DNA of 32,000 nt from positions 510,001 through 542,000 of the forward strand of contig NZ_CP046579.1 in NCBI RefSeq assembly GCF_013365475.1, given 5' to 3'. The translations under genes and the position numbers were made by a program. The notes under the pieces were generated by a model. The model was not told the origin of the DNA, searched no databases, and worked only from the letters and a program-made list of their open reading frames with translations. The stretch is from Candidatus Saccharimonadota bacterium (GTDB taxonomy: Bacteria > Pseudomonadota > Alphaproteobacteria > Rickettsiales > Anaplasmataceae). The stretch's first letter is position 1. The number at the start of each line of letters is the position of its first letter. Shown here one piece after another: positions 3,536 to 27,691 of the stretch.

Positions 3536-4652
3536 ATGAGAACTCATTTAGAAATCCTTGAACATTTTCAGAGCTTAGCTAAAAGTATTTCAGTTATTAG
3601 GAGGTGTCTTTGACTTAGAAAAATTAAAATTACGCCTTGCAGATCTGGAATCCCAAGCTATAGATGATAATTTATGGGAAGACAACAAAAAGGCGAAGAA
3701 AATTTTAATGGAGCGTTCTAAAATCAAGAATGATGTAGAGTCATTTTTAAAACTAGAGAGTGAATACAAGGATATTATTGCCTTAATGAAATTTGCTATT
3801 GACGAGAATGATGAAGGATTTTTTTCTAAAATTGAAAATGAACTAATAGAACTAGAAAAGTTAATCAAGCATAAGGAAGCAGAATCTTTATTTACTGGTG
3901 AAGCAGATAATAATAATTGCTTTTTAGAGATCCACTCAGGAGCTGGTGGAACTGAAAGTAATGATTGGGCTGAAATGCTTATAAATATGTATATAAGGTG
4001 GGCTGAAGTTTATCATAACTTTGAAGTTGAAATTGTGGAAAAATTAGATGGGGAATTAGTTGGAATAAAATCTGCAACAATAAAGATTATTGGAGAAAAA
4101 GCTTATGGATGGGCAAAAAGTGAAAGTGGCATTCACAGACTAGTTAGGATATCACCATTTGATGCAAGCAATAAACGCCATACCAGTTTTGCAAGTATAG
4201 GCGTTACTCCAGTAATAGATGATTCAATTGATATTGCTATAGATGGTAAAGATTTAAAAATTGATACTTACCGCGCCTCTGGAGCAGGAGGTCAGCATGT
4301 AAATAAAACTGAAAGCGCAGTGCGCATAACACATATCCCAACAGGCATTATAGTTCAATGCCAAAACAGCAGATCCCAGCATCAAAATAAAAATGATGCA
4401 TTAAAATTGCTTAAAGGACGTTTATATCAAATTAAATTGGAAGAAAAAGAACAAAAAATGGCTCAAGATTATAGCAAAAAACACGATATAAGTTGGGGCA
4501 ATCAAATTAGATCATATATCATGCACCCATATCAAATGGTAAAAGATTTAAGAACTGGATATGAAATTAGTAATATAAGTTCTGTTTTTAATGGTGACAT
4601 AGATTGCTTTATAGTTAGCATGCTCACCAATAAAAAAAATAGGTGTGATTAA
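3536..4652 (+). CDS. prfB: Peptide chain release factor 2, made by a programmed +1 frameshift (frame 0 3536-3610, then +1 frame 3612-4652; ~371 aa)
   Basis: ATG 3536 opens a 25-codon frame ending in CTT TGA C at 3608-3614. The +1 frame continues as DLEKLKLRLADLE into the 314-aa track ORF. RF2-specific SPF (RISPFDA) and GGQ (SGAGGQHVNKTES) motifs are present. Confidence 0.9.
3599..3614 (+). promoter_or_regulatory. prfB autoregulatory +1 frameshift site: internal Shine-Dalgarno-like AGGAGG, 3-nt spacer, slippery CTT followed by TGA C
   Basis: The sequence AGGAGG TGT CTT TGA C is read directly at 3599-3614. It matches the established RF2 frameshift cassette (SD-like element, CUU, UGA, C). Confidence 0.85.
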
Positions 4653-8802: not shown

Positions 8803-11800
8803 TTAAGTAGGCTTAGATTTCCTTTTTAGACCCTTAGTAAGGGCATCATTAGTCTTTGTCATAGCACTATCAAACACCTCCAATAATCTTTTAAATAGGC
8901 TTGGAGTTAATGAAAAAATAGGGTTAACAGATACGTTATTATTTTTATTATCACCACTTGCTTTGTAATCTATTGAAATAATACCCCTACTTTTTCCACC
9001 AGTAAGAAATTTTCCAATTATAGGAATTTTTAATAGAAATTTATTAATTAAGTATGCTGGTATTACTTGTCCTTCAACCTGAAATTTATGATCTTTAATA
9101 TCAATCTTACCACTAGTACTAATGCCTAATTCTGCTCCTTCAACCCATGACTCCTCAATTTTTATGAGACCACTTTTATACAAAAAGGGAGCATTATATT
9201 TATCAAAATACACACCCTCATTCTTTATAACATTTACAATACCAGGGAGCGAAGACATCGACAATAAAGTAGTGAGTAGTGGAGCATCTTTGATATAAAA
9301 ATTGCTAATGGATAACATGCCATAACGTTCACCATTTTCTCTCTGAGATGATAGATAAAAAGATAATTTCCCATTTTTAACTGATTTGCTAATGCCTAAG
9401 GACCGTAAAAACATACCTGAATTATCCGTGTATATTTCAAGACCTACTCCACTATACTCTGCAAATATATTACCGCTATCTTTAAGGAACTGCCCTGTAA
9501 ATCGACTCCCATTGCAACTACCCTTAGTACAAATCAAAGCTAGCTTAGCATCTTTAATAATAATATCTTCTTTCATAATTATGTTATCAACATTCATATC
9601 AATTTCTATTCCTATATCTCTGCTTAATTTATTATTATCTTTGCTGAAGAAATCCAAAATATTGCCTAAATTTACTTTCTTTCCCAAGATAGTTATAACG
9701 TTTTTCTCTTTACTTGATTTGATTTTTACACTTAAGTCACTGTTAGGCAGCATGAAGTTGCTAGAGTTTAAATGTAAATTCCCGTTTTCTAATTTTCCAC
9801 TGAATCTTATATCTAAGCCATTTCCAATAACATCTAGGCTATCTATTAATAGTTTTCCTATTCCATTTAATCTTGTAGAAAACACAATTTTATTGTGTGT
9901 ATTAGAATATTTTTTTTGTCCTAAGCAGCTTAAGCTCAATTCTAGCTTTGATAAATCTATGCTACCATTAATATATCCAGTCTTATCTGGATTTATCATT
10001 GATTCTATGTTAGCATTAATATGCCCACTATCTAGATTAAGTATCTTAGCTGGTAAATCACCAGTTAAATTCCAGGAAAGCCCCTTATTTTTATTACTGC
10101 TTTTCAGATCAAACAATAGCTGTGTGTTATTTACCATGCCACTTCCATGAAAATCAATGAAATCTCTGCCAAAATCAAGCTTAATATCATAGTTACCGAG
10201 ACTTGCACCGTAGATAACTAAATTATCAATTTTGGAATTAAAGCTGGCTAAAAAGTCTGCTTTTTTGTTACCAGAGTTTAGATTAAAAATACGTAAACTG
10301 AATACAGATTCCGCTCTTCCATTTATCTTATCACTTGTAACCTGAATGATATCATCTAGCTTAAATTTTATATGTTCATATAACCCATAAACATCACTTA
10401 CAGCTTGACCATTAATGATAAGAACTGAATCTTCTTTATTGAGAGAATTCATTTCAATTTGTCCGGCATTAATAATAAAATTCTGAAATTTAGCACTGTT
10501 TACAGTAATTTTAAGATCATTATTTTTAAGAGTCAGATTACCATTTAATTCCTTTACTTGTTTTGAATTTTCATCAAACTTTATGCTACCGTTTTCTATA
10601 TCAGCAACAATCATAATGTCTGACAGGTCATTATTATTGATTAAGCTATTGATTTTGCCGTTAAAATTTGTAATTATATTTACAATGTCACCACCAATAT
10701 GGTTGCAATACCATTTTTTAAATTTATTATTCACTATACCATCTGGTACATATGTGCATAAATCCCTTGTAGTGAGTCTACTAATATTAACCATAAGCAG
10801 AGCATTATTTGTATTAAAGTTTATCTTCCCTATTAAAGAAAGATATATGTTATCCAAGTTAAAATGGAAACTTTTTATACTAATGATTCTGTCTCCATAT
10901 GTTAAATTTATATTTACGTCAGTCATGGGTAAGCCTTTACTCACACTGCTCTCTATATTATTTAACACGTATATGTTCCCATCTATTACTTCATCATTTT
11001 CATTGATCCTTATAGAAAAGGTTCCTTTGAATCCTATGTCTTTACATAAATTGTAATCTTTAACTAATGTAATAAACCAACTTAATGATTCTAATTTTAG
11101 GTTATAGAACTTACCATGCATATCTAACAAACCATTACAATTTTTTATCACAATAGATAAGTTATCTAGAACTCCTTTCTTATCTTTTGTACGAATATAA
11201 ACATCTAAAGTATCAAAATTCTCTCCTTTCCCTATATACACCTTATTAATGAAAAATTTGCTCCCCATATCTTTATGGATTGAAATATTAGTAATTTCAA
11301 TCTTTGAATCTGTGCTTAATTTAAGGAATAATTTCCTTATTGCTTTCAAAAAGCTTTGGAAATTGAAATCAATTGTTTTGGAGTCAGATTTTTTTTTATT
11401 ATCTGCAGTCCAATCTATTATCATTAAATCTGCTGGTACTGTGACCCATTTTCTTTTCTCTTGAATTCCAGAGTCATGCGCTGGAACTACAGTTGTAGGA
11501 CAAATACGTATGTATATTTTGTCAGCTAAAATCTGAGAAAATTGCATATTGGTTTTAAATAATGAACTTAGCTTAAAATGTGCAGAAAAGTTAGAGATCT
11601 TTACAGCAAGAGCTTGGTTTGTTATTTTAAGGTCTGTAACAACCAAGCATATATCCTTGATGCCTTTTTGCCATACAACTGAAATGCTCTCCATATCAAT
11701 ATTTGCATTTGCAAACATTTTTGATATTTTTTTCTTTATATAAAAATTAATATAATTATTATTGATTTCTAAAGAATCATTCTTTTTAAATAAGATAAAA

Positions 11801-11850
11801 AAGCAAAATATAAATAATAAAGCTAAAAAAAATAATGCATTCTTAAGCAT
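8803..11850 (-). CDS. Large AsmA-like / YhdP-type (DUF3971-like) envelope protein with an N-terminal membrane anchor
   Basis: 1015-aa ORF with one N-terminal hydrophobic helix (ALFFLALLFIFCFFILF) followed by a long, N/K/I/S-rich, beta-prone body. The C-terminal block (GQVIPAYLINKFLLKIPIIGKFLTGGKSRGIISIDYKASG...VSVNPIFSLTPSLFKRL) resembles the conserved C-terminus of AsmA/YhdP-family proteins. The family assignment is from motif memory, not a search. Confidence 0.65.
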   Translation of the reverse strand: MLKNALFFLALLFIFCFFILFKKNDSLEINNNYINFYIKKKISKMFANANIDMESISVVWQKGIKDICLVVTDLKITNQALAVKISNFSAHFKLSSLFKTNMQFSQILADKIYIRICPTTVVPAHDSGIQEKRKWVTVPADLMIIDWTADNKKKSDSKTIDFNFQSFLKAIRKLFLKLSTDSKIEITNISIHKDMGSKFFINKVYIGKGENFDTLDVYIRTKDKKGVLDNLSIVIKNCNGLLDMHGKFYNLKLESLSWFITLVKDYNLCKDIGFKGTFSIRINENDEVIDGNIYVLNNIESSVSKGLPMTDVNINLTYGDRIISIKSFHFNLDNIYLSLIGKINFNTNNALLMVNISRLTTRDLCTYVPDGIVNNKFKKWYCNHIGGDIVNIITNFNGKINSLINNNDLSDIMIVADIENGSIKFDENSKQVKELNGNLTLKNNDLKITVNSAKFQNFIINAGQIEMNSLNKEDSVLIINGQAVSDVYGLYEHIKFKLDDIIQVTSDKINGRAESVFSLRIFNLNSGNKKADFLASFNSKIDNLVIYGASLGNYDIKLDFGRDFIDFHGSGMVNNTQLLFDLKSSNKNKGLSWNLTGDLPAKILNLDSGHINANIESMINPDKTGYINGSIDLSKLELSLSCLGQKKYSNTHNKIVFSTRLNGIGKLLIDSLDVIGNGLDIRFSGKLENGNLHLNSSNFMLPNSDLSVKIKSSKEKNVITILGKKVNLGNILDFFSKDNNKLSRDIGIEIDMNVDNIIMKEDIIIKDAKLALICTKGSCNGSRFTGQFLKDSGNIFAEYSGVGLEIYTDNSGMFLRSLGISKSVKNGKLSFYLSSQRENGERYGMLSISNFYIKDAPLLTTLLSMSSLPGIVNVIKNEGVYFDKYNAPFLYKSGLIKIEESWVEGAELGISTSGKIDIKDHKFQVEGQVIPAYLINKFLLKIPIIGKFLTGGKSRGIISIDYKASGDNKNNNVSVNPIFSLTPSLFKRLLEVFDSAMTKTNDALTKGLKRKSKPT

Positions 11851-13360: not shown

Positions 13361-14910
13361 TTATTTTATCACTGGCGGTTTTTCGAAGGTGTGGAAAGGT
13401 GGAGGTGAAGATACTGTCCATTCTAAAGTATTACCTCCCCAAGGATTATCTTCAACTTTTTTACCCCATTTGAATAGATGTATAATTATAAATATAAAAA
13501 GGACAACTGAAGAGAAAGACATGTATGATCCAATTGATGATACATAATTCCAAGGAATAAATGCATCAGGATAATCAGGTATACGTCTTGGCATACCTGC
13601 TAGTCCCAAGAAATGTTGGGGGAAAAAAGTAATATTGGTACTAATAAAGGTAAGCCAAAAGTGTATTTTCCCTAGGCATTCATTGTATTGCTTACCTGAC
13701 ATCTTGCCTATCCAGTAGTAAAAGCCAGAAAAAACTGCGAATAACACAGCTAGTGACATAACATAATGAAAGTGAGCGACAACATAATATGTATCGTGCA
13801 ATAATCTATCTACTCCACCTTGAGATAGAACTATTCCAGTTACACCCCCACCAGTAAACATAAAAATAAAACCTAATGCAAACAGCATAGGAGTTTTGAG
13901 CTCAATTGCCCCACCCCACATAGTTGCAATCCAACTAAAGACTTTTATACCAGTGATAACACCAATGAAGATTGTACTAGTACTAAAAAATATAACTGCA
14001 TCTTTACTAAGTCCAACAGTAAACATGTGATGAGCCCAGACCATAAATCCAAACACTGCTATACCTATCATAGCATAAATCATTCCCATATGACCAAACA
14101 CTGGTCTATGAGAGAAAGTTGATACGACTTGACTTATTATGCCAAATGCAGGGAAGATAATGATATAAACTTCTGGATGACCAAAAAACCAAAATAGATG
14201 TTGAAATAATACAGGGTCACCACCACCAGCAGGATCGAAAAAGGAAGTACCAATATTACGGTCAGTAAGTAGCATAGTTATAGCACCGGCAAGTACAGGT
14301 AAAGCAATAATTAGCATAAATGATGTCAATAAGATTGACCAAACGAATAATGGCATTTTGGTCAATAGCATACCTTTTATGCGCATATTGAGTATAGTAA
14401 CTATGAAGTTAATTGCTCCAACAATTGATGATATACCAGCAATATGAAGTGCAAATATAGCAAGATCAACTCCTGTACTTGGATGGAATATAATTTGTGA
14501 TAAGGGTGGATATAAAGTCCATCCTGTTCCTGGCCCTTCACCAGCAAATGTTGAAAAAATAAGCAGAATAAAAGATGATACTAATAACCAGAAACTCAGA
14601 TTATTCATACGAGGGAATGCCATATCTGGTGAACCAATCATAAGAGGTACAAACCAATTACCAAATCCCCCATTAGAGCTGGCATTATCATAAAGAATAG
14701 CATTATTATTGCATGTCCTGTAACCATTACATTGTACATTTGATAATTGTTGTTAAGTATATTAACGTGCATTAGCTGAGTACGAATAACTATTGATAAC
14801 AACCCACCAATAATCCCAGTTAATATAGAAAAAATAATATATAGTGTCCCTATATCCTTATGGTTAGTAGAAAATAACCAACGCCTTATACCTTTTGGTA
14901 TATCACTCAT
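13361..14910 (-). CDS. coxA: Cytochrome c oxidase subunit I, reading frame interrupted as sequenced by a 1-nt shift in a G5 run (C5 on + strand, 14667-14671); the repaired length would be ~516 aa
   Basis: Track ORFs 14638-14922 and 13361-14641 are the N- and C-terminal parts of one CoxA. The N part ends ...MPALMG then goes out of frame. The -1 frame continues [23 protein letters not shown]. Motifs [16 protein letters not shown] and VAHFHYV are present. The likely true start is ATG 14910 (MSDIPKG) with GGAGA 5-6 nt upstream; the track start at 14922 is TTG. Confidence 0.85.
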
Positions 14911-14924
14911 GCCTGTCTCCAAAT

Positions 14925-15686
14925 TTAACTTGCTAATTTTTTGCTTTCAATCCATTCATTGAAATCTTTCTTACTCACTGCCTTAACAACAATTGGCATG
15001 AATCCATGGCCTTGACCACATAATTCATAACATTGCCCGTAGTAAATACCAGGGTTTTTGACATTAAACCATGCTTCATTTAACCTTCCTGGTATTGCAT
15101 CGACTTTTATGCCGAAAGCTGGTATTCCCCAACTATGTATTACATCCCCTGCAGTAACTTGCAGACGAATATTAGTATCAATAGGTAAAACAACATTATT
15201 GTCAACAGAAAATAGCTTTAAATCTTCTTTAGCAAAATCATTTGCTTCCTTGATATAACTATCAAATGACATTTGGTATTCAGGATACTGATAGCTCCAA
15301 TACCACTGGTGGCCAATAACCTTCAAGGTTATATCAGACTTTGGTATTTTTTCTTGTAGCTTAATTAATTGAGCATTCTTAAATGCTAACACACCAACAA
15401 TAATCGTTGGTATAATAAACCAGGCAATTTCTAAGGTGACATTATGATTTGTTTGGCTTATATTTATAACTTTATTTTTGCGAAATCGGAATATCACATA
15501 AGCAAGTAGCATCCATATAAGAAACATTATCCCAACCATTACAGCAGTGACAAATGAATGTGCCCTAACTATAACTTCCATCATTTCAGTTGCAGGTTTA
15601 GGAAATCCTAATTGCCAAGGAGTAGGAAAAGAAGCAATTGATATGTTTGAATAAAAGACTATCAATAATGCAAACAACCTTGACAT
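14925..15686 (-). CDS. coxB: Cytochrome c oxidase subunit II
   Basis: 253-aa ORF with two N-terminal helices and the CuA centre motif HSWGIPAFG...CYELCGQGHGFMP. Confidence 0.9.
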   Translation of the reverse strand: MSRLFALLIVFYSNISIASFPTPWQLGFPKPATEMMEVIVRAHSFVTAVMVGIMFLIWMLLAYVIFRFRKNKVINISQTNHNVTLEIAWFIIPTIIVGVLAFKNAQLIKLQEKIPKSDITLKVIGHQWYWSYQYPEYQMSFDSYIKEANDFAKEDLKLFSVDNNVVLPIDTNIRLQVTAGDVIHSWGIPAFGIKVDAIPGRLNEAWFNVKNPGIYYGQCYELCGQGHGFMPIVVKAVSKKDFNEWIESKKLAS

Positions 15687-15968
15687 ACTTATTTATTAGT
15701 AATGGTGTAAAACTAACTATATAATATTGTATACAAATTTGTTATGCAATAAAGATTAGTGATTTTTAATATCCAGTGTTATAAAAAATATAGCCCTAAT
15801 GAAGGGGGATCGTATTTATCTTGAGCTATGCTATAATGATATCTGTTGTTGCTAGTAATTTTCTAGCTTCAAACTCAAAAGCAGTGATAGGCTTATTAAG
15901 CTTTTTATTTTTACTTGTACCCATTTGTTTAGAATGGGAGCATTCCTATGGTATAGCAAAATGCGTAA

Positions 15969-17408
15969 CTATCTTTCTATAAAAGACCTATCAATCGTTG
16001 CAATTATAGGTGTAAATAAGAATGACAAAAGTGTGCGTGATTGAGTGACTATGTATACTTCTACTGGCATACCAGGATATAGGTACACATTTTTAAACTG
16101 AGCAAGTTCTGACTTTGGTATCATTATACGCACTGAATAATAACGTCCTAACCTTTGATCATCAAGAGCATCAGGAGAGATATGGCTTACTATGCCATTA
16201 ATCAAACTCAAACGACGTGCATTATATGCACTCAGTCTCACTTTGACTTTTAACCCCTTTAATCCGTCAATAGAGACTATGTTGCTGTCTTTTTTTTGCG
16301 CTGATATTATTTCTTCTATATTTCTTGTCTGAATCTTAGTGTCTATCATAAGATCATCATTGGAAGGTACTACGCTCATAACTGGCACTCCAGATTGTAT
16401 AACACCGCCTTCAGTGTGATATCTTATGTCTGTAACTATTCCATCCTGAGGTGACCTAATTACTGTATGTGCTAACGTGTCTTCTGCAACCATTAGCCTC
16501 TCTCTTAAGTCAGCAATAGATATAGCAATTTCCTTGAGTTCTGTATTTGCTTTTTCTTGAGAATCATTTCTTATGTTTAAAATTTCTAATTCGTTCTCTC
16601 CAATTTTTTGCTGCGTTTGAGATATTGCAGTGCGATAATGACCGACTCTACCATTAATCTCAGCAAGCTGCTTTTCTAGAGCTAAAATATTTGGTTTACC
16701 AATATATCCATTGCTAAGAAGCTGTCTTTTTATTTCCAATTCCTCAACTATTAATTTACATTGCTTTAGAGCTGCGTCCAATTGATAGTTTAGCCCTACT
16801 AACTCATCATGTAGCTGCCTTATGCGCAGTTGTAGTATGTTAGTTTTTCCTAATATGCTACTGCAATGAGAATAGAATAATTTTATCTGATTTTTTACTA
16901 CTTTATTTACGAGCTCACTCTTAGTCAATTTTTTGACTTCATCAGGAAAATTAATTTTATCTAATCCTTCTCTAATAGAGATTAGTCTTGATTCATTTGC
17001 TAAAAGCGATAAGAGCTTTTCTTTGATTATATTTAGATTCGCCTTTTCATTAATATCATTTAGCAAAACTAAAGGCTCATCTTTCTTAACTATTTGACCT
17101 TCTCTGACTAGAATCTTTTTTATTACTCCGCCTCCTAAATGCTGAATTACCTTTCTATTTGAAGATACAACGACCTCTCCATTTGCACGTACTGCACCAT
17201 CAATTGGAGCTATAGCTGCCCAAATACCACCTATTCCAAAGAAAATGACTATTATTACCAGGCCAAAAAATAGTGGTCCACGTGTTACTCTCAAGACCTC
17301 GTTTGAGTGATTCCTCTCAAGGTTTAAAATAAAACTTGTTATTGTGTCAATTAATATAAAAGTTCTATCCAAAAATTTTAGTTTTTTTTTCTTTTTTATC
17401 ACTTGCAT
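15969..17408 (-). CDS. Type I secretion membrane fusion protein, HlyD family
   Basis: The ORF has an N-terminal anchor (LFFGLVIIVIFFGIGGIWAAIAPI), a long coiled-coil middle and a C-terminal barrel region typical of HlyD/AprE MFPs. The track start at 17444 is TTG, so I use the first ATG at 17408 (MQVIKKKKK). Confidence 0.85.
   Translation of the reverse strand: MQVIKKKKKLKFLDRTFILIDTITSFILNLERNHSNEVLRVTRGPLFFGLVIIVIFFGIGGIWAAIAPIDGAVRANGEVVVSSNRKVIQHLGGGVIKKILVREGQIVKKDEPLVLLNDINEKANLNIIKEKLLSLLANESRLISIREGLDKINFPDEVKKLTKSELVNKVVKNQIKLFYSHCSSILGKTNILQLRIRQLHDELVGLNYQLDAALKQCKLIVEELEIKRQLLSNGYIGKPNILALEKQLAEINGRVGHYRTAISQTQQKIGENELEILNIRNDSQEKANTELKEIAISIADLRERLMVAEDTLAHTVIRSPQDGIVTDIRYHTEGGVIQSGVPVMSVVPSNDDLMIDTKIQTRNIEEIISAQKKDSNIVSIDGLKGLKVKVRLSAYNARRLSLINGIVSHISPDALDDQRLGRYYSVRIMIPKSELAQFKNVYLYPGMPVEVYIVTQSRTLLSFLFTPIIATIDRSFIER
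16782..16888 (-). repeat. Copy A of a perfect 107-bp inverted repeat (inside the HlyD-family CDS, codons ~174-209)
   Basis: Base-by-base comparison shows the reverse complement of 16782-16888 equals 18877-18983, 107/107. Confidence 0.9.
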
Positions 17409-17414
17409 ATTTAT

Positions 17415-17444
17415 ATTATCACTATAGATAAAAAACCATGTCAA
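17415..17444 (-). promoter_or_regulatory. Candidate promoter for the HlyD-family gene, which would give a near-leaderless mRNA
   Basis: On the minus strand: TTGACA (17444-17439), an 18-nt spacer, then GATAAT (17420-17415), only 6 nt before ATG 17408. This is a motif match only. Confidence 0.25.
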
Positions 17445-17697
17445 AGAAAATAAGACACAAGTTTGCTTATTCAGTAAATACTACTGTTGACATATAGGAT
17501 TACATCTAAAAATTAAAGTATGTGACTCAAGCACATAACTTAGACTGTTTTGTACTTTGGATAAACCGTTTAGTAATAATCTGTACTATACTTAGCATGA
17601 ATTGAGCTCTTGTAAGTATTAAACCATTTATGCATGTAAAAAATGCATTGCTAATTAAACAATGTTCTGTTAGTAATATCAGGAAAACAAAATCATT

Positions 17698-18432
17698 ATG
17701 TTCCAATTGGAAGGCAGGAAATTTCTCGTTACTGGTGCTTCAGGTGGGATAGGCCAAGCAATTGTAGGGATTATGCATAAAGCTGGAACAACTTTATGTA
17801 TCTCTGGTACAAAGAGAGAGATCCTTGAAGGAATTGCTAAGCAGTACAAAAAGAACATACACGTACTTCCTTGCAATTTATTAAGTACTGAGGAAGTAAA
17901 TAATTTAATAGAAAGAGCAAGCGAATTGATGACAGGTTTTGATGGGCTTATATGCAATGCAGGCATTACACAAGATAGGTTACTACTAAAAATGACAGAT
18001 GAAGCATGGCAAAAAGTAATTGATATAAACTTGAGCTCTACATTTAAGTTGAGTAGAGAAGCGTGTAAAAAATTAATTAAAAATAACTGGGGAAGGATTA
18101 TAAATATTTCTTCAATAGTAGGGTTAACAGGAAATGCTGGACAAGCAAATTACGCAGCAGCGAAAGCTGGAATAATAGCTATGAGTAAATCTATAGCAAA
18201 AGAAGTTGCAAGTCGAAATATAACAGTTAATTGTATTGCTCCTGGGTTTATAGATACTAAGATGACTGGAGGTTTAACTAAAGAACAAAAAAGAAAAATA
18301 ATAGATAATATCCCGATGAAAAAGATTGGAACTGCAGAAGAAGTAGCAGCAGGTGTTTTATTTTTAGCAAGCAATGAAGCAAAATATATCACAGGTCATG
18401 TATTAAATATTAATGGCGGCTTATTTATGTAG
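17698..18432 (+). CDS. fabG: 3-oxoacyl-[acyl-carrier-protein] reductase (SDR family)
   Basis: 244-aa ORF with the cofactor motif TGASGGIGQAI, the NAG motif and the catalytic YAAAKAG (YxxxK). Length and end (INGGLFM) are typical of FabG. Confidence 0.85.
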   Translation: MFQLEGRKFLVTGASGGIGQAIVGIMHKAGTTLCISGTKREILEGIAKQYKKNIHVLPCNLLSTEEVNNLIERASELMTGFDGLICNAGITQDRLLLKMTDEAWQKVIDINLSSTFKLSREACKKLIKNNWGRIINISSIVGLTGNAGQANYAAAKAGIIAMSKSIAKEVASRNITVNCIAPGFIDTKMTGGLTKEQKRKIIDNIPMKKIGTAEEVAAGVLFLASNEAKYITGHVLNINGGLFM

Positions 18433-18511
18433 AGCACCATTATTTATATAGTCTATAGACAAGTTGTAGACTTTGCTTTAAAATAAAATGTGTATAAACT
18501 AAAATGAGGAA

Positions 18512-18859
18512 ATGGGCTCTGTAATAAGAAAAATTTTTAATATCTTGTATGCGGCACTACTTCTTTCAGGTTACCCAACTACCTCAGATGCTGGAAGTAG
18601 CGATATAGATGATACAACTGCTCAAGTAATATGCAATATTATTGGTTATATTTGGGGGATAGGTGGTCCACTCATGACTGTAGTAATAATTGGTGCATCT
18701 TTGCTTGCAATATTCGGTAGGATGCCTTGGCCAGCCCTGTTTGCTTTAGGGATGTTTTGTGGTGTATTTTTCGGTGCTAAGGCAATTATAATGAAAGTTA
18801 TACCTAACATGAATGATAGTGTAAAGATTATGCTAGAAAACTGCGGAACGAAAAAATAG
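18512..18859 (+). CDS. TrbC/VirB2-family type IV secretion pilin-like protein
   Basis: 115-aa ORF with a good RBS (GAGGAA 2-3 nt upstream). It has a signal-like N-terminus ending TTSDA, then two hydrophobic helices separated by a short basic loop (LLAIFGRMPWPALFALGMFCGVFFGAKAI), which is the VirB2 pilin architecture. Confidence 0.6.
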   Translation: MGSVIRKIFNILYAALLLSGYPTTSDAGSSDIDDTTAQVICNIIGYIWGIGGPLMTVVIIGASLLAIFGRMPWPALFALGMFCGVFFGAKAIIMKVIPNMNDSVKIMLENCGTKK

Positions 18860-18876
18860 TAAAAGTAAAAAGGATT

Positions 18877-18983
18877 AGATAAAATTATTCTATTCTCATT
18901 GCAGTAGCATATTAGGAAAAACTAACATACTACAACTGCGCATAAGGCAGCTACATGATGAGTTAGTAGGGCTAAACTATCAA
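18877..18983 (+). repeat. Copy B of the 107-bp inverted repeat: an untranslated fragment of the HlyD-family gene (sense orientation on the + strand) in the virB2-like/ribB spacer
   Basis: Identical to the reverse complement of 16782-16888. It would encode IKLFYSHCSSILGKTNILQLRIRQLHDELVGLNYQ, but a TAG closes the frame at 18876-18878 and there is no in-frame ATG. Confidence 0.9.
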
Positions 18984-19010
18984 CATTTTTCATATATTTT
19001 CGATACTAGC

Positions 19011-19664
19011 TCAACTTCTTTTTTTGACATAGCTAATTAGTTTATCAATGGTAGTTAACTTAATCTTATGTTGTCCAGCAAACTCAAGTAACTGAGGTAA
19101 ACGCATCATAGAACCATCATCATTAACTAATTCACATCCAACAGCTGCATGATTAAGATCAACTAACTTTGCTATTTCTACACTAGCTTCAGTATGACCA
19201 TTGCGTGCCAAGACTCCGCTATCATTTGCAATAATAGGAAAAACGTGGCCAGGAGTAATAATGTCATCCTTAGTGCTCTTTTCATCAATAGCAATAAGTA
19301 TTGTACGTGTCCTGTCATTAGCGGAAACGCCTGTTGTAATACCATAACGTGCATCGATTGATGTAGTAAATGCAGTATGAGGAGTAAGTTTCTCATCCAC
19401 ATTACTTCTTCTCATAAACTCAAGACCTAGCCTATTCATGTGAATCTTTGTCATAGCTAAGAATACGATGCCAGTACCATATCTAATCATAAAAGCTACG
19501 TGCTTTGGCTTTAATTTTTCAGCTAAGATGATCAAATCTCCTTCATTTTCCCTATCTTCATTATCAACTAAAATAAATAATTTACCAGACTGGGCATCCT
19601 CTAATACATCTTCTACAGGAGAAATATATGATAGATCCATTGATGCATAAGTAGCTTCTACCAT
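19011..19664 (-). CDS. ribB: 3,4-dihydroxy-2-butanone 4-phosphate synthase (riboflavin biosynthesis)
   Basis: 217-aa ORF with DHBP synthase motifs (DRENEGDLI, TAFTTSID, NGHTEASV). It is monofunctional in length, with no fused GTP cyclohydrolase II domain. Confidence 0.9.
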   Translation of the reverse strand: MVEATYASMDLSYISPVEDVLEDAQSGKLFILVDNEDRENEGDLIILAEKLKPKHVAFMIRYGTGIVFLAMTKIHMNRLGLEFMRRSNVDEKLTPHTAFTTSIDARYGITTGVSANDRTRTILIAIDEKSTKDDIITPGHVFPIIANDSGVLARNGHTEASVEIAKLVDLNHAAVGCELVNDDGSMMRLPQLLEFAGQHKIKLTTIDKLISYVKKRS

Positions 19665-19667
19665 AAT

Positions 19668-20162
19668 TTATTTAAACTCAATCCTAACTACTTTATATAA
19701 TTTCTCTCCGCTTGGGACTACTACCTCTACGTATTCACCAATTTTTTTGCCAATTAAAGCACTACCTAAAGGTGAGCTAGTAGATATTAATTGCCTTGAA
19801 ACATCAGCCTCATATTCACCTACAATTTTATAAATATACTCTACTTCACTACCATCGTCATTTAACATGCTTAATGTTACTGTTGCACCAAACATTACTG
19901 AATTACCAGATAAATTCTTTACCTCTATTACTTCTGCATGAGAAAGCTTGTTTTCTAGCTCTATTATACGACCTTCAATAAACCCTAACCTTTCTCGTGC
20001 AGCATGATACTCTGCGCTCTCAGACAAATCACCTTGATCGCGTGCATCAGAAATAGCCTGTATAATAGAAGGTTTTTCTTCTTTTAATTTCTCAAGCTCA
20101 GCTTGCATAAATCCAAAACCTTCTTTTGTTATAGGAAATTTTTTAATGACGGATGAAGTCAT
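19668..20162 (-). CDS. greA: Transcription elongation factor GreA
   Basis: Motifs FPITKEGF..ELEKLK and GDLSESAEYHAARE are present, plus the C-terminal FKBP-like domain. The track start at 20171 is GTG, so I use ATG 20162 (MTSSVIKK), preceded by GGTGG. Confidence 0.9.
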   Translation of the reverse strand: MTSSVIKKFPITKEGFGFMQAELEKLKEEKPSIIQAISDARDQGDLSESAEYHAARERLGFIEGRIIELENKLSHAEVIEVKNLSGNSVMFGATVTLSMLNDDGSEVEYIYKIVGEYEADVSRQLISTSSPLGSALIGKKIGEYVEVVVPSGEKLYKVVRIEFK

Positions 20163-20177
20163 AACCACCACCTAAAC

Positions 20178-21713
20178 TCAATTAAATTGAGTAATAAAAC
20201 TACTAACGATATTAAAAATATCCTTTTTGATAACATTATTCATGTCACTTGACAACTTTTCTAAAACTTCAGGATATTCATTATGAAAATAATTGATAAG
20301 CTCACATTCAAATTTACTAACGTTACTTATTTGTATCTTGCCTAGCTGATCATATAAATTAGAAAAAATGTACATCAGTACTACTTGTTCTTCTATCGGC
20401 ATAGGTGAATGCTGTTTTTGTTTTAATAGCTCAATAAGATATTTACCCTTATCCAAGGATAATTGGACACTAGCATCAAGATCAGAACTAAATCTTGCAA
20501 AATCCTCCAGTTCTCTATACTGAGCTAGACTTAGCTTTACAGAGCTAGAGACTTTTTTTACAGATTTCAGTTGTGCAGCAGAACCAATTCGCGAAACTGA
20601 TAAACCTATATTCACTGCAGGACGGAACCCTTTATGAAACAGCTCAGACTCAAGAAAAATTTGCCCATCAGTAATTGAAATTACATTAGTTGAAATGTAT
20701 GCAGATACATCACCTGCTTGAGTTTCAATAATCGGCAAAGCAGTCAAAGACCCATGTCCTTTCTCATTAGACATTTTAGCAGCTCTCTCAAGTAAACGAG
20801 AATGTACATAAAATATATCTCCAGGATAGGCCTCACGTCCAGGAGAACGTCTCAGCAGTAAAGATATTTGTCTGTACGCTATAGCATGCTTAGACAAATC
20901 ATCATATACTACCAAACAATGCATTCCATTATCACGGAAAAATTCTCCAATAGTGCAACCAGCATAAGGCGCTAAAAACTGCATAGGTGCACAGTCAGAT
21001 GCACTAGCCACAACTACAACTGTATAATCTAATGCTCCACTTTCTTTTAGTTTATTTACTACTTTTGCCACTGATGAAATTTTTTGCCCGATAGCAACAT
21101 AAACACAATAAATCTTTTGATACTCATCTGCCTTATCATTAATCCTTCTCTGATTAATGATAGTATCAAGTGCAATAGTAGTTTTCCCGATTTGTCTATC
21201 GCCAATAATTAGTTCACGCTGTCCTCTGCCTATTGGGATTAGTAAGTCTATAATTTTAATTCCGGTCTGTAGAGGTTCATGGACAGATTTACGATCAATA
21301 ATTCCTGGGGCCTTAGGGTCTATGTCCATTTTGTTCTTAACTGTAATCTTTCCACCACTGTCTATTGGGTAACCAAGTGCATTTACTACCCTTCCAAGTA
21401 ATTCATGTCCCACAGGCACTTGCATAACATCACCACTACATTTTACAATATCTCCTTCTTTTATATCACGATCATTACCAAGCACCACTACTCCAGCAGT
21501 ATCATGATCTAAATCAAAAACTATCCCTTCTATGCCACTCGCAAAAAGTACCTTTTCGCTAAACTTTGCTTCTTCAAGTCCGTAAATCAGTGCAATACCA
21601 TCAGTCACTGAAATCACTTCGCCTATATTTTCTCGTTTTATAGGATAATCAAATGTATCAACCTTTTCACGTATTATATTTACTATCTCAGAAGCATTTA
21701 TACTATCCTTCAT
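20178..21713 (-). CDS. atpA: F1 ATP synthase alpha subunit
   Basis: Walker A GDRQIGKT and typical alpha-subunit blocks ([23 protein letters not shown]). The track start at 21719 is TTG. ATG 21713 overlaps the atpH stop (ATGA). Confidence 0.95.
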
Positions 21714-22270: not shown

Positions 22271-23441
22271 ATTAAATTACACATATATAAAAAGCTAAAT
22301 ATCTTACAGTTTGGCCATATGGTCAACTAAAAAGCTTAGACCTCAGCTGATATACAACCAAAACTTTTATGGCTTAAATTCATTTAGTTATTTGTCTGCT
22401 AAGGAAAAACATGCTAAAAATAGTTAGATCCAACGATCAAGTTAATTATAACGATTTTCTTAGAATAAAGGAAAATACTTTTCACTACTTACCTATTACT
22501 AATTGCTAACTACTAGCTAAAAAGATCACATCACCAAAGATAACACATAATTTTATAAACATTTCTTCTTAATTTAACAAAAGAATATCGCTAAAGCAAC
22601 TTGAAAAGTGTATTCTCAGCAGAGCATGACAATCTAAATACATTGTGGTTTTACTTTTTTAAGTTTAAAAGTTGCTGATTGCAACCTTTGTTCTAGGCAG
22701 CTCTTTACTGACATCCTGCCCTTTCTTCAAAAAAAAATTCCTAGTATATATAGATCAAGAAACGGATCATGAGAAAAAAGGCACATACAGACATGTTTCA
22801 AGATGAACATATCCTTTTAGATTAGATGCTACTTCTACAGCCTATCTATAGTAATTACTATATACACATATGTTCTCGACTCACTTTTAACAATACAACA
22901 TGACATTTACCTATTCTTCTTTAAGCTAAAATATAGTAACTTACCAAGTAGGTTAATTGCAAGATGTTCCTTTCTTGCTTAATTTTAAGAGCATTAATCT
23001 TCCTTTCTTTAGAAAAAGAGATAGCAAATTTCTCTTATTTGTATTCTTCAAAGGTTTATCTTATTTTGTTTTTATACTTAAACTCTCAAAATCAATTATC
23101 TTTACTTATATATCCCGCTAGCGGGAGTCCTAGATATTAAGAGCCCATATTCCAGTCTAATTGCTTTTTCAGTAGTTTGTTTCTTGTTTTCGAGTATGCT
23201 ATATGTCGGTAAAGCCAGATAATTCAATAAGGAGTCTTGAAATTCTCTCACCATGTACTTATACTAACTCCTAGATCTGTAAAGGTTGTACTTATGGTTT
23301 ATTATCTATATACAACATTTATTTACCTTCTTAAAATAGTCATAAATAGTTATGAGTTCTAATGATAGAAGGGATTTTCGCAATTTCAATAAAAATTTCA
23401 AATATATTTAGATTGAATTAGCTTTTACAAAAAAAGAGAAA

Positions 23442-24140: not shown

Positions 24141-24166
24141 TCATCAGAATGTGATATAGAACATAT

Positions 24167-24197
24167 GGTATTAACTTAGATTTAGTACCCTTTTTGG
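24167..24197 (+). terminator. Weak candidate intrinsic terminator after ubiE
   Basis: GGTATT (24167-24172) pairs with AGTACC (24184-24189) as a 6-bp stem with one G-U pair and an 11-nt loop, followed by CTTTTTGG. The stem is short and the loop is large. Confidence 0.3.
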
Positions 24198-24875
24198 TCT
24201 CATAAGATTTACTCTTAATTTAGTAAAGATACACTTGCATATTCTTCATTTTAGACAATATATTTTGCATACATCATAGTAATATACTACTAAACCATAC
24301 TTAACCTCTCGTTTAGCAATCCCATTATGGGTTTTACTCAGTAATACTAGGTAATACTAATTAAAGACATAAATTGATTAATGCTATTAACTCAAATAGT
24401 AAGCTCTGATTCACACCAAGAAGATTTACTAGGAAATAGCATAAACCAGCTCTAACTATGGAGATAGCTTTCAGGTTATAATACTAATTTATCAGCCTAC
24501 CTTAAATATACCTTAGCAGCATAGTACTGAACATTCTCCTTAAACCATTTAGCAAAAGGCAATTTACATTTTTACAATAATATTGTCCCAACTTTCCTTC
24601 CTGCACACATGTGCAGGTAGCCAAAGTGGCATTGTTTTCAAGAGCTATTTAGAAGGCCAGTACCTAAAGTATATATCACCAATTCCTACTTAACTTTTGT
24701 AGTAATATCTAAAATATTACTTATTCTTATGTAAACCTATGTTTGATCTATCTGATAAATCTACAAATTAACTCTTATTAGATAAATAAGCTTGCTTTCA
24801 GCTAGTAAATTATATCTTTCTCCTTTCCCCTAAAACTGAAATCCATATACTTAATTCTTGAAACTTTAAAATGAA

Positions 24876-26582: not shown

Positions 26583-27691
26583 CAAATATAGTTTTGATAG
26601 AATGAGGCTTAAATTAAAGTTAATATCCTAAAACTCAGAGTAAAATCATTTATATTTCTAGATATTTAGCTCATAGATATGTACTCATGCTATTAGTTTT
26701 AGCCCATAGTTTTTATCTATGTTAGAGTTATCATGATATACACCACAATCATCGTAGTGCACTGATTCTATTCACTAAAAAGTCATTTTAAAAATTTATA
26801 CATATATAAGTGTTGCTTTAGTATAATATGCTTTATCTCCTTACATTTGAAGTATGTGAACACTACTTGAGTTTATCTATATAAGAATATAAGATATAAA
26901 TAAATCTACCAGCTTGTAAGGATGACTTAAACACACCAAACTTGGCTCCTATGCTACAAAATTGCAATCATTTTGCCTGTGATAATTTAAAATAGGTGTC
27001 TTAAAATGATCTTGTGACTTGCTATCTAATTTTATAGCCATATATAGGATGTCTGTTCCATAACATAACATGGATAAACTTTATTATCAGATGTAAAGCA
27101 TGATACCACATGATAAGTTTGGTAACAGAATATATAAAAACATTTCCTCAAGAATACAAAAGTTTTTCTACACACGTGCGGTTCGATTACTATGTTCTTA
27201 ATTGCACATCTTTTAAGTTAGGTATTATTCTCCATCTTAGAGAGATTTTAACTGATATATCGAGCACTGCTGTAACCTCTCCTAGAGCAGTTCAGTATGA
27301 TATAGTAATGTATAATGTGCCACATTTATGACTCTAGCAATACAGAAATCAAAGATGATGAAAGTAAGGAAACATGTAGAGGAATCAAAAATGAATAGTA
27401 CCATGCTAAGACAATAACCAATATTTACTTAATACTTTAAGTAGAGTAAAAGATGAAAAAGAAAATGTAGATTATATGTTTTTACATATTCATTTGCTAT
27501 CAGCAGTCTATTCAGTAAGAGTGAATCAATATATGCTTAGGTTATGAAGTTTCTGACTGTTATTAATTATGGAAAGAAAAGGAATATTTATTTCTTGCAA
27601 TTTCTCTTTATGCTCACGAGATACATTATGAGAAGCTTTCAACTCATGCCACTTATTTACTATACTGTACATGATTTTAGCTTTTTGATTA

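Follow-up and report, generated by a model that had tools for sequence, protein, structure and literature searches.

Why does a 107-nt piece of a secretion gene lie, inverted, in an intergenic spacer about 2 kb away from the gene itself? This question is raised by a stretch of 32 kb (the window) from the genome of wCtub, the Wolbachia endosymbiont of the filarial nematode Cruorifilaria tuberocauda (863,988 bp). Proteins of the window match QKX01709-QKX01713 of wCtub exactly, and the secretion gene, hlyD, encodes a type I secretion periplasmic adaptor identical to QKX01710.1. One copy of the 107-nt segment, copy A, is situated within hlyD. The other, copy B, is situated in the convergent spacer between a TrbC/VirB2-family pilin-like gene (hereafter virB2) and ribB (Table 1). 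An earlier reading of this DNA, made from its letters without database searches (the sequence-only reading), had taken the pair for an ON/OFF switch of type I secretion. From the comparisons reported here, copy B is best read as a further case of a mutational process already known, rather than as a device for regulation. With a probability of about 0.6, we consider it a recent, non-functional templated insertion ("filler DNA"), produced by template switching at the scar of a gene deletion.

Copy B and the missing M48 gene

Base-by-base comparison of the plus strand at copy B with the reverse complement of copy A showed identity at 107/107 positions. This identity stops abruptly at both ends, with mismatches at 16889/18876 and 16781/18984, so that the alignment and its edges agree with what the sequence-only reading had described. 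Apart from this pair, no other long repeat was found in the window. The longest exact inverted match was 15-20 nt in 30 shuffles of the window and 18 nt in the real window after masking of copy B, and a chance origin of the 107-nt inverted repeat is thus excluded.

We then asked which of the two copies is derived. Copy A aligns collinearly and without any indel with the hlyD genes of wDcau, the sister of wCtub, and of nine other Wolbachia. The window HlyD protein as a whole is 71-84% identical to that of 23 near-full-length Wolbachia loci and 67% identical to that of one partial locus (L024). Over the 107-nt stretch, the DNA of wDcau and wCtub is about 76% identical, and copy B shares substitutions that are unique to the hlyD gene of wCtub itself, indicating that it was copied from that gene after the split from wDcau. 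The hlyD frame of copy B is closed by a TAG at 18876-18878 and an in-frame methionine is absent. Judged from these alignments, copy A is native and copy B is a derived fragment that cannot be translated, as had been proposed from the letters alone.

Copy B is also specific to its lineage. A second copy of the 107-mer was found in none of 24 loci of other Wolbachia species, where it matched only within hlyD, and no inverted repeat of at least 30 nt was present in the loci of wDcau, wOo and wDimm. Likewise, a search of public metagenome contigs with a 48-nt stretch of the repeat gave 0 matches, and the genome collections searched contained no relative closer to wCtub. The sequence-only reading had itself allowed that a fragment missing from relatives would be a neutral relic of duplication, and this is the distribution that we observed.

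Comparison of gene order provided a reason for the position of copy B. In wDcau (L027) and 15 other Wolbachia species, the genes are arranged as ribB(+), M48/TPR metalloprotease(+), virB2(-), fabG(-) and hlyD(+). The M48/TPR protein of these relatives has about 426-428 amino acids (aa), encoded by a gene of about 1.3 kb, and is named "beta-barrel assembly-enhancing protease" in one source. wCtub has the same order and the same orientations, minus the M48 gene. No trace of M48 was detected by tblastn in the window, and among the 120 of 128 homologues of the wDcau M48 protein that were listed, wDcau, wBm, wDimm and wLbra were present and a protein of the wCtub contig was absent.

The edges of the loss could be placed by alignment. 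On the ribB side, homology between wCtub and wDcau ends in the final codons of that gene; on the virB2 side, it ends a few nucleotides past the stop codon. The stop codons of the two genes are separated by 1,377 nt in wDcau versus 151 nt in wCtub. These 151 bp consist of a 27-nt outer flank next to ribB, the 107 nt of copy B and a 17-nt inner flank next to virB2. Since the edges of this spacer are where homology to wDcau ends, copy B occupies the scar that a lineage-specific deletion of M48 left, and its position, as judged from synteny, is exactly that of the deletion. The sequence-only reading had missed this deletion, which gives copy B a simpler origin as filler of a deletion junction. M48 was also lost separately in Wolbachia sp. 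C61_2 (L012:4295-4500), by a plain internal deletion without filler, after which the upstream spacer of the ancestor and a remnant of 66 aa from the C terminus of the protein were still present. Thus, M48 is dispensable in more than one lineage.

Junctions of copy B and the proposed template switch

The inner junction of copy B carries a pattern of microhomology. The 11-mer AGATAAAATTA occurs twice in hlyD, once as the first 11 nt of copy A (16878-16888) and once at 16952-16962, 74 nt upstream in the gene. The heptamer AAGGATT, which flanks copy B on its inner side, also stands immediately before the upstream AGATAAAATTA, so that the inner junction and this second hlyD site share an exact match of 18 nt in total. 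In the 64 kb of both strands, AAGGATT occurs 11 times and the 11-mer only twice besides copy A; the chance of the 7-nt extension is about 3e-4. As far as the letters can tell, a 7-nt microhomology combined with a slip across an 11-nt direct repeat is a signature of microhomology-mediated template switching. The 17-nt inner flank resembles the M48-virB2 spacers of other Wolbachia (...CC(C)TT..ACTTTTA) and is probably a remnant of the ancestral spacer, in which AAGGATT may have been the acceptor sequence. For the 27-nt outer flank, matches elsewhere in the window do not exceed 10 nt, and its alignment to ancestral spacers is weak.

These junctions are consistent with the following course of events. 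In the wCtub lineage, the M48/TPR (BepA-like) gene between ribB and virB2 would have been lost by an accident of replication or repair. During the deletion or its repair, a growing 3' DNA end would have left its own template and paired, through AAGGATT, with the opposite-strand template within hlyD, about 2 kb off. A slip across the direct repeat AGATAAAATTA would have skipped 74 nt, and 107 nt of hlyD would then have been copied in inverted orientation before the end returned beside ribB. Deletion and insertion would in this way belong to one event, and the perfect identity of the copies would speak for a recent one.

Two further ideas were dropped. For a hairpin hot spot, RNA folding showed a 12-bp stem in the copy, but with DNA parameters the fold reached -7.2 kcal/mol, which is no better than in relatives (-3.9 to -11.2 kcal/mol for the homologous segment in 24 other Wolbachia). 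The direction of replication could not be read from GC skew, which tracks gene orientation here and was uninformative.

The closest known kind of element is the templated insertion caused by template-switch replication errors, as in events of the fork stalling and template switching (FoSTeS) and microhomology-mediated break-induced replication (MMBIR) type and in short-range template switches (PMC7954356, PMC5120786, PMC3907307). Similarly to these, the wCtub locus has an inverted insert at a deletion junction that is identical to a nearby donor, the donor lies a few kb away in the same genome, the inner junction shows a putative microhomology and there are signs of more than one switch; the deletion breakpoint itself is defined by the relatives. 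Most descriptions of such events come from eukaryotic genomes and from experiments with E. coli, whereas the one described here is fixed in an obligate endosymbiont. In contrast to the described cases, only one junction of the wCtub locus, the inner one, can be scored.

Several points weigh against a template-switch filler. Deletion and insertion may not have coincided in time, and microhomology could be scored only at the inner junction. The outer flank, with 27 nt, is far shorter than the 75-nt ancestral spacer between ribB and M48 (as measured in wDcau, with M48 on the ribB strand) and aligns poorly to it, which hints at extra steps. Moreover, the 7-nt match of AAGGATT was spotted post hoc in an AT-rich sequence, and the lack of function of copy B is argued from absence of evidence. 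Finally, our view covers 32 kb of the wCtub genome, so that the recurrence of such fillers lies outside its scope.

Alternative origins and functional readings

Among the alternatives, the one that survives best separates the two events: M48 would have been lost earlier, and the hlyD fragment would have been copied into the spacer much later, for example by break repair with an ectopic template. We regard this as unlikely, although intergenic spacers are among the few insertion-tolerant places in a compact genome, the perfect identity dates copy B alone and not the deletion, and the short, poorly aligning outer flank suggests added erosion. No M48 remnant is left in wCtub, whereas the loss in Wolbachia sp. 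C61_2 left one, and copy B coincides exactly with the deletion. Copy B is a non-functional templated insertion under this alternative as well.

It is improbable that the duplication is older and that ongoing gene conversion has kept the two copies identical. Perfect identity with abrupt ends would fit this, and homologous recombination may be available in wCtub: rec and ruv genes were undetected in wDcau, wOo and wOv, and wCtub is not named among these genomes (PMC8116671). However, wCtub-specific amino-acid changes show no excess in copy A (4/36 versus 7.4% elsewhere, Fisher p = 0.51), which counts against conversion because an unconstrained copy B would tend to introduce them. Copy B is also present in no relative examined, and 107 bp is a short target. 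The donor pseudogenes of Anaplasma msp2/p44, in the same bacterial family, are similar to copy B in being truncated copies that can recombine with expressed genes. In contrast to them, the single copy in wCtub is identical to its target and generates no diversity, and the target encodes a periplasmic adaptor instead of a variable surface antigen.

Duplicated and truncated gene fragments have reportedly been described in Ehrlichia ruminantium and other Anaplasmataceae genomes by Collins et al. in 2005, those of E. ruminantium in association with tandem repeats that vary in copy number, and the sequence-only reading had drawn this parallel. It holds loosely, in that both cases concern Anaplasmataceae genomes in which part of an intact gene is repeated in non-coding DNA and cannot be translated there. 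It does not extend to the tandem repeats, none of which were found by Tandem Repeats Finder in 15500-20500; the wCtub copy is single, inverted and located at the scar of a gene deletion.

That the repeat does something in living cells is very improbable in either of two forms: the 107-bp repeat might flip measurably in living wCtub, giving subpopulations without type I secretion, or antisense RNA from ribB read-through might tune hlyD. If either were true, a deletion scar would have been co-opted as a regulator.

The first form, as a reversible recombinational switch in which inversion truncates the adaptor, was the proposal of the sequence-only reading. The two copies do bracket the promoter-like site of hlyD together with the 5' third of the gene, and 107 bp is more than the minimum of homology that RecA-dependent exchange needs in E. 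coli. The predicted outcome of the flip was correct when recomputed, with 209 native residues followed by an 18-residue tail that ends at the TAG at 19038-19040, giving a truncated product of 227 aa. However, no recombinase, invertase, transposase, phage gene or mobile element was found among the tested large open reading frames (ORFs) of the window. The repeat is confined to wCtub among the relatives examined, the flipped (OFF) form has no alternative functional product, the deposited orientation is that of ancestral synteny and the position of copy B is already explained by the M48 deletion. Invertons of the Hin/Gin/Fim type likewise have inverted repeats that bracket a promoter-containing segment and the 5' end of a gene; unlike them, the wCtub repeat is a copy of coding sequence that lacks a recombinase in the window, conservation and an alternative ON product. 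The locus thus fails the defining features of both invertons and msp2/p44-type donor pseudogenes, and we consider a dedicated switch scarcely credible. Since wCtub is not among the genomes reported without rec and ruv, RecA-type exchange over 107 bp is conceivable, and a flip of the 2-kb segment with fabG, virB2 and the 5' part of hlyD could be conceived as a rare, probably deleterious accident.

The second form, in which copy B serves as a trans-antisense regulator and ribB read-through couples hlyD expression to the atp-greA-ribB operon, is just as hard to credit. The strand logic follows straight from the sequence: read-through transcripts of ribB would include a 107-nt stretch fully complementary to hlyD mRNA. 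No terminator-like site was found in the 151-bp spacer, including the part between the ribB stop codon and copy B, and read-through is plausible, as M48 follows ribB by 75 nt on the same strand in relatives. Against a regulator stand the lack of conservation of copy B in the 24 species loci and in wDcau, wOo and wDimm, and the lack of a recognizable RNA element: an Rfam scan of the copy B locus gave no family, and the fold of the copy was not significant (z = -1.8 on both strands). Antisense transcripts of this kind would be a by-product and not a designed function. A tRNA scan of the locus was also negative.

The physical reality of the locus was assessed from the published assembly and from short-read contigs. 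The genome of wCtub (supergroup J) is a Canu assembly of PacBio circular consensus sequencing (CCS) reads from a capture-enriched library, and the polymerase chain reaction (PCR) confirmed that it is circular (PMC8116671). Two Logan contigs of run SRR10898805, a public run of C. tuberocauda, were compared with the window, bearing in mind that such contigs come from a k=31 graph, which cannot resolve a 107-bp repeat or tell orientation isomers apart. The contig on the ribB side (L025) was 100% identical to the window and that on the coxB side (L030) 99.99% identical; they stop at 18954 and 16811, respectively, in each case exactly 30 nt into a repeat copy. This is the behaviour of k=31 contigs at a true two-copy repeat, indicating that both outer junctions are present in the reads of SRR10898805. 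Moreover, the ribB contig continues into hlyD-derived sequence and not into M48. The inner contig, 16859-18906, was not found in public short-read assemblies (no record of FabG, with the 244-aa or the 241-aa start, or of VirB2), so that for the inner junctions the deposited assembly is the one source of confirmation. An artefact of assembly or library, such as a mis-join or a PCR chimera, can be dismissed as next to negligible. Capture-enrichment (LEFT-SEQ) libraries do include PCR steps (PMC8116671) and at least one probable homopolymer error lies nearby in coxA, but the two contigs match the window up to and into the copies and no wCtub M48 appears among the homologues listed.

A contig of another run (L026, SRR10898807) stops at window position 18987, 4 nt outside copy B and not 30 nt inside it. 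This end could reflect a coverage gap, an effect of the read technology or a minor junction variant.

The neighbourhood of the repeat and its meaning for genome reduction

The features of the locus are collected in Table 1.

Table 1. Features at the hlyD-ribB locus of wCtub (window coordinates)
Feature	Position	Strand	Remarks
hlyD, HlyD-family type I secretion periplasmic adaptor gene, 479 aa	15969-17408	-	Intact; TIGR01843, 1.6e-107; ATG at 17408; donor of the copied segment
Copy A, codons 174-209 of hlyD	16782-16888	-	Native coding sequence by comparison; collinear with hlyD of relatives
Second hlyD site, AAGGATT followed by the 11-nt direct repeat AGATAAAATTA (gene sense)	16952-16969	-	18-nt exact match to the inner junction of copy B
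Promoter-like site, TTGACA, 18-nt spacer, GATAAT	17415-17444	-	11/12 matches; consensus match only; just upstream of the hlyD ATG
fabG, 3-oxoacyl-acyl carrier protein (ACP) reductase	17698-18432	+	TIGR01830, 2.9e-89; within the bracketed segment
TrbC/VirB2-family pilin-like gene	18512-18859	+	PF04956, 1.2e-13; stop 18857-18859; within the bracketed segment
Inner flank of copy B, 17 nt	18860-18876	.	Last 7 nt AAGGATT (18870-18876); resembles spacers of other Wolbachia
Copy B, non-coding 107-nt fragment in hlyD sense	18877-18983	+	Fills the site of the M48/TPR protease gene that was deleted, as judged by comparison with relatives
Outer flank of copy B, 27 nt	18984-19010	.	Only GCTAG(TAT) by the ribB stop recognizably homologous to the ancestral spacer
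ribB, 3,4-dihydroxy-2-butanone-4-phosphate synthase	19011-19664	-	TIGR00506, 2e-60; stop 19011-19013
greA	19668-20171	-	Family match

The other large ORFs tested in the window all belong, where they matched a family, to housekeeping genes, namely dnaJ, pdhB, mgtE, prfB, typA, gap, tatC, rnhA, ctaB, atpA, atpH, ubiE and argS, together with genes for an MsbA-like ABC transporter and an NhaC-like antiporter. For prfB (3590-4652), the family model matched only from position 49, consistent with the usual programmed +1 frameshift of this gene. An ORF of 1015 aa (8803-11850, minus strand) had no NCBIfam match, and the contig annotation gives PF13116 (YhdP) for the same product. The neighbours of ubiE in wCtub differ from those in wDcau, where pheT sits beyond ubiE. 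Genes are closely packed in the window except in three stretches (22271-23441, 24141-24875 and 26583-27691), each of 0.7-1.2 kb, which are without an ORF of at least 90 aa and may be eroded pseudogenes.

Differences in the length of poly-G runs were observed between assemblies. In the deposited genome, coxA is split into ORFs of 94 aa and 426 aa (window 14638-14700, minus strand). Near 14666, the coxB-side contig (L030) has G6 where the window has G5, and it encodes an intact CoxA of 516 aa; the frameshift of the deposited genome probably stems from a homopolymer error, the alternative being real heterogeneity. The reverse case was seen for hlyD of wDcau, for which the reference has G6 (L027:11800-11806) and encodes an intact HlyD of 478 aa, and a short-read contig (L028:6036-6042, SRR10900510) has G5, which splits hlyD into products of 93 aa and 347 aa. 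Such conflicts between long-read reference and short-read contig may recur in wCtub and wDcau.

wCtub and its sister wDcau have the smallest Wolbachia genomes known and show strong mutual synteny (PMC8116671). Gene order in wCtub is almost frozen, and the locus described here represents one gene loss with a junction that can still be read: a conserved M48/BepA-like gene is cleanly gone, and its place is taken by an inverted copy, apparently linked by microhomology, of part of a gene 2 kb away. The perfect inverted repeat left behind could destabilize the gene of the type I secretion adaptor. As a single and, most probably, neutral instance, copy B is of value for the mechanism that it would illustrate rather than as a biological system of a new kind. 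If the proposed origin is correct, it would be an example of template switching as a process that, beyond slow erosion, deletes genes during the reductive evolution of endosymbionts.

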